Source: Terriglobia bacterium
GTDB taxonomy: Bacteria; Acidobacteriota; Terriglobia; UBA7540
Assembly (NCBI GenBank): GCA_049583595.1
Contig: JBAUWE010000166.1
Coordinates: 4,913 to 68,912, forward strand
Direction of reading: 5' to 3'
DNA: 64,000 bases
Shown here: piece by piece, positions 2,484 through 51,604 of the stretch
Position numbering within the stretch: position 1 is the stretch's first letter
How the letters are laid out: each line of letters begins with the position of its first letter
The notes under the pieces: model-generated
Database searches by the model: none
Seen by the model: only the letters and a program-made list of their open reading frames with translations
What the model was told of the DNA's origin: nothing
Made by a program: the position numbers and the translations under genes

Positions 2484-4919
2484 CTACGTCTCCATCGTCC
2501 TCAGGGCCTCGGCCAGGTGGTCTGAGGCGCGGATGGCGACGGCCACCACGGTGAGCGTGGGGTTCTTCTCGGAGTAGGACGTAAAGCTTGCGCCGTCGAG
2601 CACCCACAGGTTTTTCACGTCGTGCGAGCGGTTGGTGGGGTCCAGCACGGAGCGTTTGGGATCGCTGCCCATGCGCACGGTACCCACCAGGTTTTCGCCG
2701 TCGAAGTGCGGCTTCATGTTGTCACTGCGCATGGCGAGCACCTTGCCGCCCGCCGCCTCGATGATGGCCCTGCATTTCTCCCTTTCGTCGCGCACCATGG
2801 CCAGCTCGTTTTCGCCCCACTCCAGGTGCATGCGCGCCTTGGGCAGTCCGAACTGATCGCGGGCTACAGGGTCGAGGTCAACGTAGCTCTTTTCGTTGGC
2901 CAGCATTTCACCGTGGGCGCCCAGGTAGACCATCGCCGGATAAATGCGCCGCACCTCCTCGCGATACTTCTCGCCAAACCCCGGAACGTCCGCCGCAAAG
3001 CTGGGGATCTGCACCGGCCCGCTGCGCAGGTCAATCATGTATCCGCGCGCAAAATTCTTGCTGGGGCGCTCGTAATAAAAGTTGGGAATTTCGCCGTGCT
3101 CATCGGCGCCATCTTCGTTCATCACTTTGGCGCCCAGCAGGCGTTCGATGTATCCCACAGCGCCGTCGTAGTGTTCGCTCACCAGGTTCCTGCCCACCCA
3201 GCCGCTCGAGTTCGCGAGGCCCTGCGGGTAGTCTTTGGATTTTGACATCAGCAGGATGCGCACGTCTTCCACGCCGCCGCAGGCCAGCGCGTAGGCGCGG
3301 GCGCGCACCCGATATTCCTTCTTGCTGTGGCGGTCAATAAACACTGCGCCGCTGCAGCGCTTGCCGGTGGCGTCCACTTCAAGCTCGCGCACGATGGCGT
3401 CGCGCACCAGGGTCAGCCGTCCCGTCTTCTCGGCCGCGGGAATGGCCGCGTTGGCCGAGGAATAGGCAGCGTTGATGTCGCAGCCCCGCATGCAGTAGCC
3501 GCAATAGTGGCACGGGGGACGGCCGCCATAGGTCACCGTGTTGACCGCCTTGCGCAAGGCGATCACGTGGTAGTCAGCGCCCATCTTCGTCCGGCACGCT
3601 TCCCGAATCATCTTCTCGCCGCAGCGCAGTTCGAGCGGCTTGATGAAGTGTCCGTCCGGCACGGCGGCCAGCCCATCTTTCGCGCCGGCCACGCCCATAA
3701 AGGTTTCCGCGCGGTCGTAATAGGGAGCCAGTTCCTGGTATCCGAACGGCCAGTCGTCGCCGATGCCGCGGTTCTTGAAGTCCTTCTCGCCAAAGCGCCA
3801 CGAGATGCGCGCCCAGGTCAGCGTCTTGCCGCCCACGGCCGGCAGCAGGGCGTAGTCGATGGGCTCTTCGGGACAGACCACCGGGTTTTTCACATAGAGG
3901 AACCCGGTGTAATCGTTCTCGCCATGCGACTTCCAGCGCCCGCGGAAGGGCAATTCCCACGGGGGAATATGGGTCTTGAAGCGCGCCGGCGAAACCCAGG
4001 TACCGGCTTCCAGCACCACCACCCGCAGCCCTTTTTCCGTCAGTTCTTTGGCCGCGATGCCCCCGGAAGCTCCGGAGCCCACTATGCAGACGTCATAGGT
4101 CTCTTTGGTGATCGCGTCCAGGTCCTGCTTTCCGATGGACTGGCCCCGCGAAACAAACGCGGCGGGAACGATTCGGTAGTTGGAGGATGCAACCTCGTTC
4201 GGCGGACCCTCGTCCGGCACCGCTTCATGTTTCATCGCGGGCGCGCTTGCGCCGTGCGATGGCAGGGCCGCTGTTTTCCCGGTCAGTTCATCGCAGGTAG
4301 GCATCACGCCGTCATTCGGCCGGTTGCCCTTGTACTTCAAGTCGTCCATCAGACCGATCTTTGACGTGTAATAGCCCGTCGCCACGGATTGTTTCGACTG
4401 GACAAAGAACTTCTCGGCCGGTGTCTTCGGCTCCGCCTCATGCGCGGCCAGGCTCGTCAGCAGTTCGGTTCGCTGGGGCAATGAAATAGCGGCAAAGGCT
4501 TTCCCGAACCGCTCACTGCAGGTCTGGTCCAGAGCCTTCAGGCCCTCCGTCCAGGCCCGCTGCTCGGCGGGTTCCGCATGGGTCATGACAAATTCGAGAT
4601 AGTCCTTCACCTGGGCGGCGTAAGCGCCGGGCGCAACAGCATCGTCGGGGATCATCGTCTGGGCCAGCGCGGAGACGGTGAATTTCTGCTGGTCCGTGAA
4701 AAACCCTGAAACCGTGGCCCCGGCCCAATGGCTGGGCTCGTGCTGCAAAGCCGGTCCTGCTGCCGCCGCGCGACGGGGCAGCCACCCCGCGGCGGTTGCG
4801 GCCGTGGCCACGCCCAGCAGGCGGCTGAGCGCCTCTCGCCGGTCGAGCCCTTTCTTGCCGGCGTCTTCATTTTTCGGGCGGCCTGCCGCCTCTTGCCCAT
4901 TGGAGACTTTGTTTTTCAT
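2484..4919 (-). CDS. Tat-exported fusion: gluconate 2-dehydrogenase subunit-3-like domain + GMC-family FAD oxidoreductase
   Basis: 811-aa ORF. Twin-arginine N-terminus LDRREALSRLLGVATAATAAGW. The N-terminal ~200 aa (FFTDQQKFTVSALAQTMIPDD..PGA) resemble the small subunit of FAD-dependent gluconate 2-dehydrogenases. FAD motif DVCIVGSGASGGIAAKEL is followed by a GMC C-terminal domain. Confidence 0.85.
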   Translation of the reverse strand: MKNKVSNGQEAAGRPKNEDAGKKGLDRREALSRLLGVATAATAAGWLPRRAAAAGPALQHEPSHWAGATVSGFFTDQQKFTVSALAQTMIPDDAVAPGAYAAQVKDYLEFVMTHAEPAEQRAWTEGLKALDQTCSERFGKAFAAISLPQRTELLTSLAAHEAEPKTPAEKFFVQSKQSVATGYYTSKIGLMDDLKYKGNRPNDGVMPTCDELTGKTAALPSHGASAPAMKHEAVPDEGPPNEVASSNYRIVPAAFVSRGQSIGKQDLDAITKETYDVCIVGSGASGGIAAKELTEKGLRVVVLEAGTWVSPARFKTHIPPWELPFRGRWKSHGENDYTGFLYVKNPVVCPEEPIDYALLPAVGGKTLTWARISWRFGEKDFKNRGIGDDWPFGYQELAPYYDRAETFMGVAGAKDGLAAVPDGHFIKPLELRCGEKMIREACRTKMGADYHVIALRKAVNTVTYGGRPPCHYCGYCMRGCDINAAYSSANAAIPAAEKTGRLTLVRDAIVRELEVDATGKRCSGAVFIDRHSKKEYRVRARAYALACGGVEDVRILLMSKSKDYPQGLANSSGWVGRNLVSEHYDGAVGYIERLLGAKVMNEDGADEHGEIPNFYYERPSKNFARGYMIDLRSGPVQIPSFAADVPGFGEKYREEVRRIYPAMVYLGAHGEMLANEKSYVDLDPVARDQFGLPKARMHLEWGENELAMVRDEREKCRAIIEAAGGKVLAMRSDNMKPHFDGENLVGTVRMGSDPKRSVLDPTNRSHDVKNLWVLDGASFTSYSEKNPTLTVVAVAIRASDHLAEALRTMET
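2485..2513. repeat. 29-nt exact direct repeat, copy 2 (inside 3' end of GMC gene)
   Basis: Identical to 1340..1368. It covers the last 9 codons and the stop of the 2484..4919 CDS. Confidence 0.9.
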
Positions 4920-5307
4920 CTCGCATCTCCTGCTGGGAGTAAGCCTAGACGCACAAAGCCCTCAACGCTGTGACCAGCATCACGTTTGTTTTTGCAGGGG
5001 AGTGCTCCGGGCCCCTCGTGCAGCGCCGTCGTCTCCATCGCCGCAGCTTCGCCTTCCCTTCTCCATGAGTCTCGCCGGGCTTCGGCTGGCGATCGAGGCG
5101 TAGACTCATCCGGTCGCCGCGTGGTAGTCTGTGCGCCGGGATCGAACGCGAACACCCGTTCGACCGGTCAGGGCGAGCGGCGGGTCTGCTGTGCGGCCTA
5201 TGGCTCCGCCACCCTCGCGCCGGTAGTCACGCAAAGTCTGCAACCACAAAAAGCGTCCTCAACACGCTGCAACAGTGTTTGTCCATTCCAGTGTCAGGAG
5301 GATTGAC

Positions 5308-22443: not shown

Positions 22444-22459
22444 TGTGATATGTATCACA
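22444..22459 (+). promoter_or_regulatory. perfect CRP-type palindrome TGTGA-N6-TCACA
   Basis: TGTGATATGTATCACA. TATGAT (-10-like) lies at 22483..22488, 34 bp from the site centre. ATG 22497 lies only 9 nt after the -10. Confidence 0.45.
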
Positions 22460-22850: not shown

Positions 22851-22928
22851 CACCCGCCATCGCGGCGTGAAATCCGTCACGCTACCCGTTTCTCTTTTTC
22901 ACCCCAGTCAGGTTTTTGGAGGTTCGTT

Positions 22929-37498: not shown

Positions 37499-38830
37499 AT
37501 GGACAGACGTGAATACTTTAAGCTTGGCGTTGCAGGAGCCATGGGCGCGGCGCTCTCGGCGCAGCCCGTTGCAGCAAAAGAAGCGGAGGCTCGCGCAACG
37601 CGCGGCCTGCCCACTCCCATCATCAAAGACATTCAGGTGATCGCCACCGAGCCGAGGGGCGTGCGGCTGGTGGTGGTGAAGATCATCACCGACCAGGCGG
37701 GCCTTTACGGTTACGGCTGCGCCACCTTTACGCAGCGCGCCGACCTGGTGGTGCCTGCGGTGGAAAAATATCTCAAGCCGCTGCTGGTGGGCAAACCTTG
37801 CGACCGCATTGAGGACACCTGGCAGGCCTGCTACAACAGTTCCTACTGGCGCAACGGCCCGGTGCTGAACAACGCCATCAGCGGCGTTGACCAGGCGCTG
37901 TGGGACATCAAGGGTCGGCAGGCCAACATGCCCGTCTACCAGTTGCTGGGCGGCAAGGCGCGCGAAGCGGCGCTGGTCTACGGCACTACGGGCGGCACGG
38001 AAGCCTCCGAGGCGGTCGACCGCGTGCGCGGGCTGATGGCCAAGGGCTTCAAGGTGATCAAGGTAATGGTGGGCGTGCCGGGCATGTCATCCTATGGCCC
38101 TTCGAGCGGGCCGCCCCTGCGCGGCTTGCGCCCGGGGCCGGTGTGGGAGCCGGGCCCGTACATGCGCCTCACGCGGCAGGTGCTGGAAGCGTGCCGCCAG
38201 CAACTGGGCGAGGAAATCGAGCTGATCCACGACGTGCACGAGCGCGTGAGCCCGCACCAGGCTGTGCAGTTCGCCAAAGAACTCGAACCCATCCGGCTGT
38301 TCTATCTGGAAGACGTGCTCTCACCCGAGCAGATTGATTACTTCCGGCAGATCCGCCAGCAGTGCACCACGTCGCTGGCCATGGGCGAGCTGTTCAACAG
38401 CCCACACGAGTGGAACCCGCTGATCGAAGGCCGCCTGATCGATTACATCCGCGTGCACATCTCGCAGGCCGGAGGGCTGACGCCGGCAAGGAAGATCGCC
38501 ATCCTGTGTGAAATGTACGGAGTGAAAACCGCCTGGCACGGCCCGGGAGACGTTTCACCCGTGGGCCACACGGCGCAGTTGCACCTGGACCTCGCCAGCA
38601 CCAGCTTCGGCATCCAGGAGGGCGGCATCATCACCGGCCTCGAGGCCGAAATCTTCAAGGGCTGCGCCACCTTCAAGGATGGCTACATTTACGCCAGCGA
38701 CAAGCCCGGCTGGGGCATCGAAGTGGATGAGGCGCTCGCCGCCAAGCATCCCTTCCGCGATGGACCGAACCATCTCGACGGTGGCTGGGGCATCGTCCGG
38801 CGATACGACGGGGCCGTGATTAAGCAGTGA
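37499..38830 (+). CDS. enolase-superfamily D-mannonate dehydratase (ManD)/RspA-like protein with Tat signal
   Basis: 443 aa. MDRREYFKLGVAGAMGAALSA is a twin-arginine signal. ManD-subgroup-like segments (IKDIQVIAT..VVVKIITDQAGLYGYGCATF, AISGVDQALWDIKGRQANMPVYQLLGG). Confidence 0.85.
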   Translation: MDRREYFKLGVAGAMGAALSAQPVAAKEAEARATRGLPTPIIKDIQVIATEPRGVRLVVVKIITDQAGLYGYGCATFTQRADLVVPAVEKYLKPLLVGKPCDRIEDTWQACYNSSYWRNGPVLNNAISGVDQALWDIKGRQANMPVYQLLGGKAREAALVYGTTGGTEASEAVDRVRGLMAKGFKVIKVMVGVPGMSSYGPSSGPPLRGLRPGPVWEPGPYMRLTRQVLEACRQQLGEEIELIHDVHERVSPHQAVQFAKELEPIRLFYLEDVLSPEQIDYFRQIRQQCTTSLAMGELFNSPHEWNPLIEGRLIDYIRVHISQAGGLTPARKIAILCEMYGVKTAWHGPGDVSPVGHTAQLHLDLASTSFGIQEGGIITGLEAEIFKGCATFKDGYIYASDKPGWGIEVDEALAAKHPFRDGPNHLDGGWGIVRRYDGAVIKQ

Positions 38831-43681: not shown

Positions 43682-43854
43682 CGCGGCTCCTCTCAAAAAA
43701 ACCGCTGGGAGGAGCGAGTCCCCGTCTTGCTGGGGCCGGCTGGCTTGCCTCTCCTGCCCAGAAGCTAACCTGCACTCCTCGCAGCTATCCCTCCCAGCAG
43801 ACGACAGGCTAACAAACACAGCGGCGCAATGCCGTGACCAGGGTTACCAGCGGT

Positions 43855-43870
43855 TGTGACCGTGCTCACA
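43855..43870 (+). promoter_or_regulatory. perfect CRP-type palindrome in the divergent USP intergenic region
   Basis: TGTGACCGTGCTCACA. GACAAT (-10-like) lies at 43892..43897, 32 bp from the site centre, oriented toward the USP gene at 44031. Confidence 0.5.
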
Positions 43871-45412: not shown

Positions 45413-45497
45413 CGCTGAAGCTGACGATTGCCGGCCGCCTGTATGGGGGGGGGCATCATCAGACACGACGATCCATACGGAGGTCGTCACAGGGTTT

Positions 45498-45513
45498 GGT
45501 GACGCAGCTCACC
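45498..45513 (+). promoter_or_regulatory. CRP-type palindrome, part of a 29-nt composite motif
   Basis: GGTGACGCAGCTCACC. It belongs to TCGTCACA-N7-GTGACGCAGCTCAC (45484..45512), which recurs at 50514..50542. CATCAT (-10-like) lies 32 bp from the centre. Confidence 0.45.
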
Positions 45514-45551
45514 GTAGAACAGACGAAACTGGACCATCATAAGTTATGGAA

Positions 45552-45663
45552 GGAGGGTGGACGCGGGCGAATAGGAAGCAAACCATAAACGGAGCACGGC
45601 GGCAGCAAACACGGAGCTCCGTAAGGCCAGCGACTTAACGCGGCCGATTCGCCCCCACCCTCC
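45552..45663 (+). ncRNA. candidate structured small RNA (long interrupted stem)
   Basis: GGAGGGTGG(acgc)GGGCGAAT at 45552..45572 pairs with ATTCGCCCCCACCCTCC at 45647..45663, giving 17 bp. Inner hairpin CGGAGC/GCTCCG. A second hairpin GCCCGAA-TTCC-TTCGGGC at 45678..45695. Lies in a 635-bp gene-free gap. The strand is inferred from the upstream promoter model only. Confidence 0.25.
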
Positions 45664-46047
45664 TGAGCACTCCTTGAGCCCGAATTCCTTCGGGCCTTCA
45701 TCTATCATCACCGTAAAGCCTGCCTTTCTTTATAGCCTTCAAGCGGGAATGGTATGTTAAATATATAGGTGTCCTGCCAAGGCATGGGGTACAAGCGTGG
45801 CTTGGGAAATAGAGGCGCGGTCCCTTCCAGACCTCGGGGGCCCGGCCTCACGTGGAAACGTCACACTCCCCCCGTTTAAGTGGCCGCAGTGTCCGCCTCA
45901 GCGGGCAGGATTCGCCACCTTTCGGAACTGTGTATTCCACGGTTCCGGCCGGAAGGCGGGCCAACCCTTTTTGCTGAACAGTTTTGCGAATGAAACCAGA
46001 CCTGAGCCTGCGTCGTCGAAGTTTCCAGGGCAAGCGATTCGTTTATA

Positions 46048-48744: not shown

Positions 48745-49161
48745 ATGGCGGAACAAATCAATGCTCTACTGGTTCACGCTAAGGACCAGTCGTATGCCGA
48801 TTTAACGCCGGTCCTCGGGTCCCTCAGCATCAAAGTGGTCCACGCGCAAAGCTTCAGAGAGGCTTCCGTGCTGCTGAAGAAGCAGGGCGCAATCGACCTG
48901 ATTTTTACAGGGACGAATTTAGAGGGCGGTGGATGGGCTGATGTTCTGGCGCTGGCCCAGCATGCAAAGAGCTACCTCCCCGTCATAGTGGTCTCCCGAA
49001 TAGTGGACGCAGGGCTCTATCTGGATGCGCTCGGGCGAGGCGCCTTCGATTTTGTGACGCCACCATTTCTGACTTCTGATCTGGCGCACATTGTTCGTTC
49101 GGCGATTTATAGAGAACTTGTCAGCGTGAAGCAGGACTTGACGGCTCCGCCCGCAGCATAA
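48745..49161 (+). CDS. pseudo-receiver (REC-like domain lacking canonical phospho-acceptor residues)
   Basis: CheY-like fold pattern. The acidic pair is replaced (ALLVHAKDQS) and the phospho-acceptor position reads DLIFTGTNLEGGGW. Confidence 0.6.
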   Translation: MAEQINALLVHAKDQSYADLTPVLGSLSIKVVHAQSFREASVLLKKQGAIDLIFTGTNLEGGGWADVLALAQHAKSYLPVIVVSRIVDAGLYLDALGRGAFDFVTPPFLTSDLAHIVRSAIYRELVSVKQDLTAPPAA

Positions 49162-49210
49162 ATTTGATTGGAAAGTGTTTTTTTTCGGCCATGCCAGGGT
49201 TGGCAACCCA

Positions 49211-49226
49211 GGGGCAAAGAAGTAAA
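49211..49226 (+). promoter_or_regulatory. candidate sigma54 (-24/-12) promoter
   Basis: TGGCAACCCAGGGGCA. TGGCA matches the -24 element, GC sits at the correct 12-nt offset and GGGCA substitutes for TTGCA. About 130 nt upstream of the STAS gene. Confidence 0.35.
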
Positions 49227-49356
49227 GCGGGGCGGTACCGTATGGACAGGGACCCCATCGCTGACGACAGGTGAATGCGTCAGGAATCGTAATGTGTTAC
49301 GGACTCAGGAGCGGGGTACGCCGGTGAGATTTTTCTTATTCCAAGGGCGGTGAAAA

Positions 49357-49653
49357 ATGCTTAAAATAACGTTTAAGGACACGCCGGGGAGTACAAAAGT
49401 GAAACTGGAAGGTAGGCTTGCCGGACCGTGGGTCGAAGAGCTGGAGCGGAGTTGGACAGAACACTCGCCTCAAGCTTCTGAAAATGTCATAATAGATTTA
49501 TCGGATGTGACCTACATTGACCCTGAAGGGAAAAGACTCTTGGCCCGCATGGTAGACAAGGGGTTCTGCTTCGAGGGAACGAACTTAATGACAAAATATG
49601 TAATTGATGAAATTACACGTGTTGGAATACGTTCGGGTAGGAACGGAGGTTAA
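49357..49653 (+). CDS. STAS-domain protein (anti-sigma-factor-antagonist-like)
   Basis: 98 aa. ..VKLEGRLAGPWVEELE...VIIDLSDVTYIDPEGKRLL.. is a typical STAS/SpoIIAA-like pattern. Its stop lies 1 nt before the next start. Confidence 0.7.
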   Translation: MLKITFKDTPGSTKVKLEGRLAGPWVEELERSWTEHSPQASENVIIDLSDVTYIDPEGKRLLARMVDKGFCFEGTNLMTKYVIDEITRVGIRSGRNGG

Positions 49654-49654
49654 G

Positions 49655-50371
49655 ATGAGATCGCCATACGGATTGGAACTGGTCGAAGATTGCCACACCT
49701 GCTCGAACAAGGCCGACGGGTTCTTTTGTGATCTTTCTCCGGAAGGACTGAAAGCATTCGAGGCGATCAAGTACACGACTGCGTATCCCTCTGGCGCGGT
49801 GCTGTTTGTGGAAGGACAATCCGCCCAGGGTGTTTTTCTGCTCTGCAAAGGCCGCGTGAAGATCTCAATGACCTCCGCCGAAGGCAAGACACTGATTCTG
49901 AGAATCGTTAAGCCGGGAGAAATCCTGGGATTGCATGCGACGGTTTCTGACACTGCTTTTCAGGCCACCGCTGAAACTCTGGAGCCCTGCCAGGTGAACT
50001 TCATCAAACGCGACGACTTCCTGCGTCTGCTTCGGGACCATGGAGACGCCTCCATCCACGCGGCGCAGCAGTTGAGCGGCAGTTATCAGACCGCGTGCGA
50101 GCAGGTGCGCTCACTGGGTCTTTCACAGTCAGCGCCGGAAAAGCTGGCCCGCTTCCTGCTGGATTGGTCGTCTAAAGGGCAGTCTTCCAATCAGGGAATC
50201 CGGGTGAAACTCACGCTGACTCACGAGGAGATCGGCCAGATCATTGGAACTTCCCGGGAAACCGTGACGCGCACGCTGAGCGAATTCAAGTCCAAGCACC
50301 TTGCCGAGCTGAAGGGCTCGACCCTGGTGATCCAGAACAAGACCGCACTCGAAGCTTTCCTGGGCGGCTAG
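49655..50371 (+). CDS. Crp/Fnr-family transcriptional regulator
   Basis: ORF 49604..50371, start moved to ATG 49655 after GGAGG. cNMP-binding-like beta-roll (GAVLFVEGQSAQGVFLLCKGRVKIS). HTH with recognition helix SRETVTRTL, the R-E-x-x-x-R pattern seen in CRP. N-terminal C-x2-C-x8-C. Confidence 0.88.
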   Translation: MRSPYGLELVEDCHTCSNKADGFFCDLSPEGLKAFEAIKYTTAYPSGAVLFVEGQSAQGVFLLCKGRVKISMTSAEGKTLILRIVKPGEILGLHATVSDTAFQATAETLEPCQVNFIKRDDFLRLLRDHGDASIHAAQQLSGSYQTACEQVRSLGLSQSAPEKLARFLLDWSSKGQSSNQGIRVKLTLTHEEIGQIIGTSRETVTRTLSEFKSKHLAELKGSTLVIQNKTALEAFLGG

Positions 50372-50527
50372 CCCCGACAAACATCTCCACTCGCTTTGAA
50401 GCCCCTGAGACGGAAGCTCCACCTTTCCCCGGGAAGCGCTGGTGGGGTTGTCTGCACCCCGAATGAACCTCCCAAAGGTCCTGCGCGGGACCGCAGGAAA
50501 ATAAGGCTGGATTTCGTCACAATCACA

Positions 50528-50543
50528 AGTGACGCAGCTCACT
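50528..50543 (+). promoter_or_regulatory. CRP-type palindrome, second copy of the 29-nt composite motif
   Basis: AGTGACGCAGCTCACT within TCGTCACA-N7-GTGACGCAGCTCAC (50514..50542). TAAACT (-10-like) lies at 50565..50570, 32 bp from the centre. Confidence 0.45.
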
Positions 50544-50585
50544 GCCAAGCTTAGAACCCTTCTCTAAACTGTACCTAACATACCG

Positions 50586-50656
50586 CCCGGGAATCCGCCC
50601 CAGCGGCCGCCGATTTGCCCCACACGCGCCGTTCGATTCCCGGGTTTACCTTTTTT
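50586..50656 (+). terminator. long hairpin + T-tract (terminator-like)
   Basis: CCCGGGAATC (50586..50595) pairs perfectly with GATTCCCGGG (50635..50644) and is followed by TTTACCTTTTTT. Confidence 0.4.
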
Positions 50657-50693
50657 CAGGGCCTTTTACCCCTCTCCAAAACTCGTAAAGAAG

Positions 50694-50897
50694 CTATCGA
50701 CGCCCAGCCAACTTTTGCTGCAAGGCGGCAGCGCGGGCGGCCAGGGCATCCACTTTGTCCATCTTCTGGAGGTGCCTTTCGACGCTGGCATACAGGCTTA
50801 GCGTTTGCATTAGTCGCGGATAGTCCGGGCCGTAGTTATCTTCCTGGATTTTCAGCGCTCGCTCATAAAGCGGCTCGGCTTCCGAATGTTCGCTCAC
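50694..50897 (-). CDS. 67-aa TPR-repeat fragment (possible gene remnant)
   Basis: EAEPLYERALKIQEDNYGPDYPRLMQTLSLYA resembles a single TPR_12-type repeat. Far shorter than normal TPR proteins. Confidence 0.3.
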   Translation of the reverse strand: MSEHSEAEPLYERALKIQEDNYGPDYPRLMQTLSLYASVERHLQKMDKVDALAARAAALQQKLAGRR

Positions 50898-51060
50898 GCC
50901 TCAGAGCAAGCCTTCGGTCGGTAGCGAACGGCAATACACCTCGCAGCAGAGGGGCAAAGCGTGAAGCACATCGCTGGAAATTGGTACGATTTTCAAGCTC
51001 ATGCCGGCGGGAAACACCCATGCAACCTCACAAGGGCCTGTGAATAGCGGCACTCGGCAG

Positions 51061-51076
51061 GGTGATAGTCATCACT
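51061..51076 (+). promoter_or_regulatory. CRP-type palindrome upstream of the HTH-less cNMP-domain gene
   Basis: GGTGATAGTCATCACT. TAAACT (-10-like) lies at 51099..51104, 33 bp from the centre. ATG at 51128. Confidence 0.5.
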
Positions 51077-51127
51077 GCGCGCCTGTTGCCCTGCCGGGTA
51101 AACTCGCCTTAGATTGAGGGTAGTTCC

Positions 51128-51604
51128 ATGAAGAAAATCCACCCTCCTCCTGCCGGAGATCCCAAGGCGAGTAAAATGAGAAAACCTTTGCCACCTGTGG
51201 CGCTCACGGCGTTAAGGACCATTCAGACAACCCGGGTCTGCCCGAAAGGGCACGAGCTTTTCCTGGAGGGACAATCGCCGCAAGGCATCTTTATCCTCTA
51301 CGCGGGCCGCGTCGAGCTTTCCGTAACCGACGCACATGGCCGGCAGGTGGCACTGGGCACGGCGCTGCCGGGAGATGTTCTGGGACTGAGCGGGGCGTTT
51401 TCAGGAAAACACTATGAGGAAACGGCCGTGGCAGCGGTCACCTGCCGGACCGGCTTCGTCAAGTGCCCGGACTTCCTCCACTTCCTGGGCCATTATCCCG
51501 CGGCTGCCTTCTGGGTTGTCCAGTTCTTAAGCGACCGTGTAACCACCACTCTCGACCAGCTCTCCTGCATCCATCGCCAGCCGCTCAAAGGTCTTCGGCA
51601 TTAG
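51128..51604 (+). CDS. cyclic-nucleotide-binding-domain protein (Crp/Fnr-like sensor domain without HTH)
   Basis: 158 aa. Beta-roll pattern GHELFLEGQSPQGIFILYAGRVELS. It ends just after the dimerization-helix region, and no DNA-binding domain is encoded before the stop. Confidence 0.75.
   Translation: MKKIHPPPAGDPKASKMRKPLPPVALTALRTIQTTRVCPKGHELFLEGQSPQGIFILYAGRVELSVTDAHGRQVALGTALPGDVLGLSGAFSGKHYEETAVAAVTCRTGFVKCPDFLHFLGHYPAAAFWVVQFLSDRVTTTLDQLSCIHRQPLKGLRH

Follow-up and report, generated by a model that had tools for sequence, protein, structure and literature searches.

A Predicted Hypoxia and Nitrosative-Stress Regulon in Terriglobia Associated with a Cysteine-Bearing Crp/Fnr Regulator and a CRP-Type Operator

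Which operator is read by a Crp/Fnr-superfamily regulator that joins a CRP-like recognition helix to an N-terminal cysteine motif, and what might it control? The question arises from a 238-residue protein encoded on the plus strand at 49655..50371 of a 64,000-nucleotide stretch of DNA from a Terriglobia bacterium (GenBank assembly GCA_049583595.1, contig JBAUWE010000166.1; G000:C166:4913-68912 in our numbering), referred to below as the window. Public homologs of the protein carry the label Terriglobia. A sequence-only reading of the window had proposed that this regulator recognizes GTGA-N6-TCAC palindromes at class II promoters, two of them just 3' of its own gene. Having followed the motif through the genome and its relatives, we consider it likely that the protein represents an undescribed Crp/Fnr subfamily that activates approximately 25–50 hypoxia- and nitric oxide (NO)-related promoters via this palindrome. 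The host assembly (G000) comprises 4.86 Mb in 748 contigs with a G+C content of 58.5% and is 95.5% complete. Genes were called genome-wide with a simple codon-usage caller, covering 83% of the genome, and the comparative set consisted of 41 related genomes in which the regulator was scored as present if a homolog was found at E<=1e-30.

Operator motif and promoter geometry

The GTGA-N6-TCAC motif is a CRP-type box that is enriched in noncoding DNA. The window holds eight exact sites where 0.62 are expected, a count reached by none of 100 shuffles, and the genome as a whole holds 59 noncoding and 50 coding copies. The genome-wide scan that the earlier reading had proposed bears out the enrichment, with 5–16 noncoding copies at each of the other spacers between N0 and N15 as against 59 at N6. 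Matches of at least 16 bits to a position weight matrix are likewise found mostly outside genes (47 noncoding vs. 7 coding), coding DNA being the fourfold larger fraction. The extended motif reads t-GTGA-y-N4-r-TCAC-a, and just 6% of sites have A at position 5. Eleven of the 59 noncoding sites lie on the regulator's own 71-kb contig, near ackA, cydAB, and a multiheme conduit operon. The classical FNR box was rejected as the operator because TTGAT-N4-ATCAA has no copy in the whole genome; TTGA-N6-TCAA is not enriched.

The sites stand at a fixed distance from a -10 hexamer. Around 58 usable noncoding sites, TANNNT begins 29.5 nt away from the center in 15 cases, 30.5 nt in six, and 31.5 nt in three, compared with approximately 0–3 cases at each of the other offsets, except for a second peak at 51.5 nt (n = 6) that appears because sites occur in tandem. 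The 24 positions at 29.5–31.5 nt belong to 23 of the 58 sites, and 38 of the sites fit if the -10 is relaxed to NANNNT. Searched as a composite pattern (site, 22–24 nt, TANNNT), the arrangement has 28 matches vs. 2–6 at shifted offsets. If the hexamer is taken as -12..-7, the site center falls at -41.5. A -35 hexamer is not present at these promoters, and no sigma-70 -35/-10 pair occurs within 50300..51200. By its predicted geometry this is the arrangement of class II activator-dependent promoters, which the sequence-only reading had claimed for a handful of sites and which the fixed offset of TANNNT extends to the genome. Its individual observations also hold, namely the two palindromes 3' of the regulator gene, the hexamer TAAACT 32 and 33 bp from their centers (measured to hexamer centers), and further sites at 22445, 43856, and 45499, to which we add sites at 4970, 22867, and 37676.

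Many of the sites are paired. The tandem TCAC-N8-GTGA-N6-TCAC is present in 23 copies vs. 0–3 for gaps of 4–13 nt, a register that accounts for an otherwise odd enrichment of TCAC-N8-GTGA, and the second site often lies exactly 22 bp upstream of the proximal one. Between divergent genes, each site of a pair is proximal for one direction, as in a universal stress protein (USP) gene pair of the window (43834/43856) and on contig C196 (29716/29739). We propose that the R-E-x3-R helix of the regulator reads the t-GTGA-y-N4-r-TCAC-a palindrome and that a dimer bound near -41.5 would activate these -35-less promoters with their TAnnnT -10 in class II fashion. At many promoters a second dimer would bind exactly 22 bp upstream, near -63.5, and in divergent regions one dimer would serve each direction.

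The tandem motif is almost confined to genomes with this regulator subfamily, a co-occurrence observed among kin genomes that are not independent and one that other co-lost genes may also explain. Tandem counts are 17–40 in 13 same-genus genomes with the subfamily (G000 included) and 34, 9, 7, 7, 4, and 4 in another six genera where it occurs, as against 0–2 in all 16 genomes without a homolog; a reversed-pattern control likewise gives 0–2 per genome. Two members of the same genus, G002 and G005 (98% complete), are missing all three R-E-x3-R paralogs and have tandem counts of 0 and 1, with three composite-promoter matches each vs. 17–25 in their kin. Both retain Crp/Fnr paralogs of the VRELVSR, VRDLVSR, and TRSRVSH types, which excludes those types as the binder. 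Conversely, G017, G020, G021, and G023, from four genera in which only the focal-type ortholog is found at the threshold given above, carry 4–9 tandem and 7–17 composite-promoter matches compared with 0–4 in controls, which argues that the focal type is sufficient.

Conservation is also evident at the locus itself. Orthologs in the 12 same-genus genomes are 92–96% identical, and a site lies 50–175 nt 3' of the regulator stop in all 12, as a perfect tandem pair in nine of them. In a second genus, in which the regulators are 86–89% identical, the order regulator, tandem sites, -10, small RNA (sRNA) is retained, followed in three of four loci by a further site and a sensor-only paralog within the flank that was fetched. 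At the sites next to the regulator, half-sites are fixed and spacers variable in both genera.

The regulator, its signal, and rival explanations

The regulator belongs to the Crp/Fnr superfamily by domain content, with a cNMP-like (cyclic nucleotide monophosphate) beta-roll and a Crp-type helix-turn-helix (HTH) following the N-terminal cysteine motif. Its Pfam matches all pass their cut-offs (PF00027, cNMP_binding, 1.5e-19; PF13545, HTH_Crp_2, 2.9e-18; PF00325, Crp, 6e-8). The start codon is preceded by GGAGG 8 nt 5' of the ATG, and the same initial methionine is found in 115 of the 119 homologs (63–95% identity) aligned for residue invariance. The recognition helix, GTSRETVTRTL, contains R201-E202-T-V-T-R206, and its assignment to the CRP type in the earlier reading is backed by a HMMER alignment of S-R-E-T-V-T-R over the S-R-E-T-V-G-R of solved E. 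coli CRP, the closest solved relative (5e-18, compared with 6e-9 for Aliivibrio FNR). The cysteine motif has the form C13-x2-C16-x8-C25. These three cysteines, C64, R201, E202, and R206 are invariant in 119/119 homologs and the residues between the cysteines of the motif vary freely; C148 is present in 117 homologs and C112 in 111. Orthologs of other genera retain C-x2-C-x8-C, that of G021 excepted. The sequence-only suggestion that this motif hints at redox or iron–sulfur (Fe-S) sensing gains from the invariance of the triad, the Fe-S cluster itself being something that we still infer.

E. coli CRP contacts cAMP through E72, R82, and S83. In the HMMER alignment these positions are L, F, and Q in the regulator, a replacement that makes cAMP an unlikely ligand. 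The sensor would most likely be the invariant C-x2-C-x8-C motif together with a further conserved cysteine, holding a cluster labile to O2 or NO. No curated NCBIfam model reaches its cut-off on the protein (CRP, FNR, FnrL, FixK, NtcA, and FtrB among them), the CRP equivalog NF008732 scoring 79.6 bits against a cut-off of 266 and the FNR model NF008365 49.2 bits against 228. These missed cut-offs, together with N-terminal residues that solved structures leave uncovered, place the regulator outside the described Crp/Fnr subfamilies. On this evidence it appears to combine a CRP-like DNA-reading head with a cysteine motif placed as in FNR.

Several observations weigh against the reading developed here. 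The split into coding and noncoding DNA relies on a crude home-made gene caller, and four orthologs of 43–60% identity (G015, G022, G031, and G035) occur in genomes with few or no tandem motifs. The cysteine spacing is unlike that of E. coli FNR, residues 1–21 were covered by no solved structure when the Protein Data Bank was searched with the sensor half alone, and AlphaFold2 on a 40-sequence alignment gave a poor model (mean predicted local distance difference test score 59). The G021 ortholog is without the cysteine triad, and tandem sites are nevertheless kept in that genome. Finally, paralogs on contigs C559 (SRETITR, no cysteine triad) and C196 (SRETVSR, no cysteines) bear the same helix and could bind the same sites, which makes the assignment of every site to the focal regulator tentative.

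The last of these points leads to a rival in which most sites are read by the C559- or C196-type paralog, the focal regulator controlling its neighbors only or heading a cascade of the ANR/DNR kind. The helix pattern SRET[VI][TS]R is common to all three paralogs, and a conserved tandem site 50 nt 5' of the C196-type paralog in G000, G004, G008, and G013 would fit a cascade of two regulators with one box, in which a cysteine-motif sensor drives a second, box-sharing sensor. We regard this rival as unlikely, since the four genomes with a focal-type ortholog only still carry the motif above controls and 11 of the 59 noncoding sites cluster on the focal regulator's contig. An altogether different binder would be a redox repressor such as Rex, whose regulons often contain cyd and fermentation genes. 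The Rex box (TTGTGAA-N4-TTCACAA) has the same half-site spacing, and Rex boxes have been reported to be identical to boxes of the HcpR1/CRP type (PMC5701242). However, a search of five genomes of the genus (G000, G002, G004, G005, and G008) did not find PF06971, the DNA-binding domain of Rex, whereas control genomes scored; Rex prefers A at position 5, which just 6% of the sites have; and a fixed -41.5-type offset to a -10 without a -35 element is characteristic of an activator. We rejected Rex as the binder on the absent domain and on position 5, and an unrelated repressor of this kind is highly improbable.

Another rival, which we find doubtful, keeps the proposed role of the regulator and differs in the signal. 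The cysteine motif may supply no Fe-S ligands and instead form a structural zinc site or act, like that of CprK or Cmr, as a redox switch of the thiol/disulfide kind. Its spacing is not that of FNR, the NCBIfam FNR and FnrL models fall far below their cut-offs, and the candidate fourth ligand C112 is present in just 111 of 119 homologs, whereas C64 is invariant and C148 almost so, such that other ligand sets or disulfides are possible. Set against this, three invariant N-terminal cysteines plus a cysteine in an E-T-x3-C context resemble the arrangement of E. coli FNR, and pyruvate:ferredoxin oxidoreductase (PFOR), quinol-type NO reductase (qNOR), feoB, hemA, and USP genes, all predicted targets, are typical of O2/NO-responsive FNR/ANR/DNR regulons.

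The G021 ortholog (locus L018, G021:C144) is 60% identical to the focal regulator and has lost the triad (ACQKGS...FFY), yet tandem sites lie 3' of the gene and in other parts of its genome. This ortholog offers a natural way to test whether DNA binding requires the cysteines. The other paralogs of G000 include a divergent pair at G000:C196:26838-29760, one of the VRELVSR and one of the SRETVSR type, with a GTGA-N6-TCAC site between them; beside these paralogs, a tandem site lies between a radical-SAM gene and ligA. A further paralog, C44_8618, has the helix SPETVSR (FNR-like E-x2-S-R) and an N-terminal C-x2-C, and its type is missing from G002 and G005.

Small RNAs and other features of the window

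Downstream of the regulator, the proximal operator GTGACGCAGCTCAC (50529..50542) is centered at approximately -41.5 of a predicted promoter for an RNA that we call sRNA-1. A decayed distal site, CTGGATTTCGTCAC (50507..50520), lies 22 bp 5' of it, at approximately -63.5, with its right half intact; the site is a perfect GTGA-N6-TCAC in 9 of 12 same-genus relatives. The -10 hexamer TAAACT (50565..50570, plus strand) starts 29.5 nt from the center of the proximal site and is TAGACT, TAAATT, or TATATT in relatives. sRNA-1 itself (50581..50655, plus strand, ~75 nt) is predicted from conservation and fold, the latter comprising a long hairpin with a 10-bp closing stem (CCCGGGAATC/GATTCCCGGG) and two unpaired CCCC-containing stretches, followed by a T-rich tail. 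Its core of ~66 nt is almost invariant in 13 genomes and ~95% conserved in the second genus; the stems hardly vary, and the surroundings, that is promoter spacers and downstream DNA, diverge. A covariance model finds sRNA-1 in 12 of 14 same-genus genomes (those without it being G002 and G005) and in 4 of 5 second-genus genomes, always beside the regulator, in single copy and restricted to regulator-bearing genomes. The hairpin (50586-50644) was rejected as a mere terminator of the regulator gene because conserved operators and a -10 separate it from the stop codon, its loop is invariant in two genera, and it is single-copy. A tRNA-like origin of the stretch GTTCGATTCC was rejected on a negative ARAGORN result.

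The second palindrome, GTGATAGTCATCAC (51062..51075), precedes a sensor-only Crp/Fnr paralog of 158 residues (51128..51604, plus strand) that has a cNMP-like domain and no HTH; here TAAACT (51099..51104, plus strand) starts 30.5 nt from the site center. This paralog lies within the fetched flank in 8 of 12 same-genus loci and beside the sRNA in three of the four second-genus loci. Between sRNA-1 and the sensor-only gene is a 67-residue open reading frame (ORF) on the minus strand (50694..50897) that matches only the C-terminal part of TPR_12 (4.4e-8) and looks like a gene remnant; the spacer that holds it differs in length between relatives.

On its 5' side, the regulator is preceded by a STAS-domain gene (49357..49653, plus strand) whose stop lies 1 nt before the regulator ATG, and the two genes are probably cotranscribed and translationally coupled. 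The STAS match (E 1e-4) scores 22.4 bits, slightly below the Pfam cut-off of 22.6. Upstream of it in the same conserved array is a receiver-like gene (48745..49161, plus strand), for which Response_reg (E 3.6e-6) scores 27.6 bits, again below its cut-off (30.2). The array of receiver, STAS, and regulator genes is found in all 12 same-genus loci; in other genera, the STAS gene is directly 5' of the regulator in four of five loci (L014–L016 and L018) and the receiver-like gene is present in L016–L018. Conserved receiver-like and STAS genes (48745..49653) hint at a partner-switching input to the Crp/Fnr regulator.

Another copy of GTGACGCAGCTCAC (45499..45512), with an upstream TCAC half-site at 45487..45490 and a -10-like CATCAT (45535..45540, plus strand) at an offset of 29.5, forms the predicted promoter of sRNA-2, a four-helix RNA of ~125 nt (45547..45670, plus strand) predicted from compensatory changes and conservation. 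It is conserved in 11 same-genus relatives, with compensatory changes in 6 of 31 pairs and 97.7% of cells paired vs. 40–52% when partners were slid. No Rfam family matches sRNA-1 or sRNA-2. The two RNAs have in common a 20-nt stretch, GC(C/G)GCCGATT(T/C)GCCCC(A)CAC, and their local alignment scores 23 vs. a shuffle mean of 14.4, with 4 of 1,000 shuffles reaching 23. This is suggestive only; the pair may represent sibling sRNAs that share a seed. RNAduplex comparison of both seed regions with 3,442 translation-start regions gave no clear outliers and no common top targets.

Among the remaining sites of the window, a tandem pair 22 bp apart, GTGACCAGGGTTAC (one mismatch) and GTGACCGTGCTCAC (43834..43869), lies between the divergent USP genes, each site at a -41.5-type offset for one direction; the -10 is TAGCCT for the minus strand and GACAAT for the plus strand. 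The operator GTGATATGTATCAC (22445..22458), with TATGAT at an offset of 31.5, is upstream of an efflux operon encoding OEP, CusB-like, and RND components, and this promoter is also present in G004 and G013. A site at 4970..4983, with TAGGCT at an offset of 29.5 on the minus strand, is upstream of a gene (2484..4919, minus strand) in which gluconate-2-dehydrogenase subunit 3 is fused to a GMC oxidoreductase. Two sites were set aside: that at 37676..37689 is an exact match inside a coding region (37499..38830), lacks a -10 at class II spacing, and is probably due to chance, and that at 22867 is doubtful (12.5 bits, A at position 5, no -10 at the right offset). Just beyond the window, G000:C166:69475-70000 (window-equivalent 64563..65090) carries a perfect tandem of GTGAGCTTGCTCAC and GTGACGGTAATCAC in the 22-bp register and a TAGCCT at an offset of 29.5. 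The ~450 nt that follow are without a convincing ORF and may represent either a small gene that was missed or a third noncoding unit under regulation; additional sites are at window-equivalent positions 64287 and 65557.

Predicted regulon and relation to known systems

The predicted regulon was compiled from genes that have a correctly spaced or nearby site upstream. Energy and redox metabolism is represented by PFOR, a quinol-type NO reductase (NorB with a cytochrome-c-like domain), a multiheme cytochrome c, a NapH/Fer4_5 membrane protein, citrate synthase, GMC oxidoreductase, a radical-SAM enzyme, and a nitroreductase, and stress and persistence by three USP genes (two of them tandem-domain), Hsp20, a ribosome hibernation factor of the S30AE/HPF-CSD kind, thioredoxin, PCMT, and alanine dehydrogenase. 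HemA and FeoB are predicted heme and iron targets, and a LuxR-type response regulator, the CusCBA-like efflux operon, the second Crp/Fnr paralog, the sensor-only paralog, and the two sRNAs complete the list. Taken at its predicted ~25–50 promoters, the regulon looks like a hypoxia and nitrosative-stress persistence program. Its make-up recalls the regulons of FNR, ANR, and DNR as well as the dormancy set under DosR in mycobacteria.

The individual parts of the system are familiar. E. coli CRP and actinobacterial Crp/GlxR have the same R-E-x3-R helix, the TGTGA-N6-TCACA core, and class II placement at -41.5; unlike CRP, the focal regulator does not conserve the cAMP contacts, carries an extra N-terminal cysteine-rich extension, and has predicted targets in hypoxia and stress rather than catabolism. 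The proteobacterial [4Fe-4S] O2 sensors FNR, ANR, and FnrL resemble it in an N-terminal cysteine triad plus a central cysteine, in the class II activation predicted here, and in a predicted regulon of anaerobic type (feoB, hemA, USP, and respiratory genes); the paralogs ANR and DNR use one box, as the R-E-x3-R paralogs may do. In contrast to FNR (E-x2-S-R, TTGAT-N4-ATCAA), the focal protein has an R-E-x3-R helix, the cysteine spacing C-x2-C-x8-C, and frequent 22-bp tandem sites, and by helix and box it is not an FNR sensu stricto. In Bacillus subtilis and B. cereus, Fnr is a Crp/Fnr-family protein that senses oxygen with an Fe-S cluster and reads a CRP-like TGTGA-N6-TCACA box; its cluster is held by C-terminal cysteines, whereas the conserved motif of the focal regulator is N-terminal.

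Desulfovibrio HcpR/HcpR1, which acts in the nitrosative stress response, reads a TGTGA-N6-TCACA box with a helix in which positions 1, 2, and 6 are R, E, and R (PMC5701242). The helix positions and the predicted box of the focal regulator agree with these; unlike it, HcpR is without the cysteine-triad extension and without a reported 22-bp tandem architecture. HcpR1 probably senses through heme. An HcpR identity was rejected because hcp (PF03063) was not found in G000, a 95.5% complete assembly, with controls scoring. The DosR regulon of mycobacteria is a functional analogy, including USPs, an alpha-crystallin-type Hsp20, a nitroreductase, a hibernation factor, and alanine dehydrogenase, although its regulator is NarL-type and the focal one Crp/Fnr. 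E. coli FnrS and Bacillus RoxS/RsaE offer another such analogy, that of an sRNA with C-rich unpaired stretches driven by an O2 regulator.

More tentatively, and in our view with the odds against it as a whole, the cysteine-motif (probably Fe-S) regulator could be the master switch of a dormancy-like low-oxygen/NO program in soil Terriglobia, acting as two dimers in a 22-bp register, with a STAS/receiver partner-switch module in its own operon, a DNA-binding-less paralog forming inactive heterodimers, and two C-rich sRNAs. If true, the two sRNAs would count among the first proposed for Acidobacteriota with a link to a regulator. Full-text literature searches returned no paper describing a transcription-factor regulon in this phylum, and a search for the C-x2-C-x8-C motif in regulators or for an FNR/CRP regulon in Acidobacteria returned nothing relevant.

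The system appears to be an unusual mix of known parts with a well-defined predicted regulon in a little-studied phylum. An N-terminal cysteine sensor usually goes with a TTGAT box, and a CRP helix with cAMP; both pairings would fail in this subfamily, which matters for annotation given that thousands of similar metagenomic proteins are labeled "CRP/FNR family, cAMP receptor". In soils, Acidobacteriota belong to the most abundant bacteria. The operator motif, the promoter architecture, the predicted ~25–50 promoters, the two sRNAs, and the sensor-only paralog together offer a testable genome-wide regulon model of how these organisms may cope with fluctuating oxygen.

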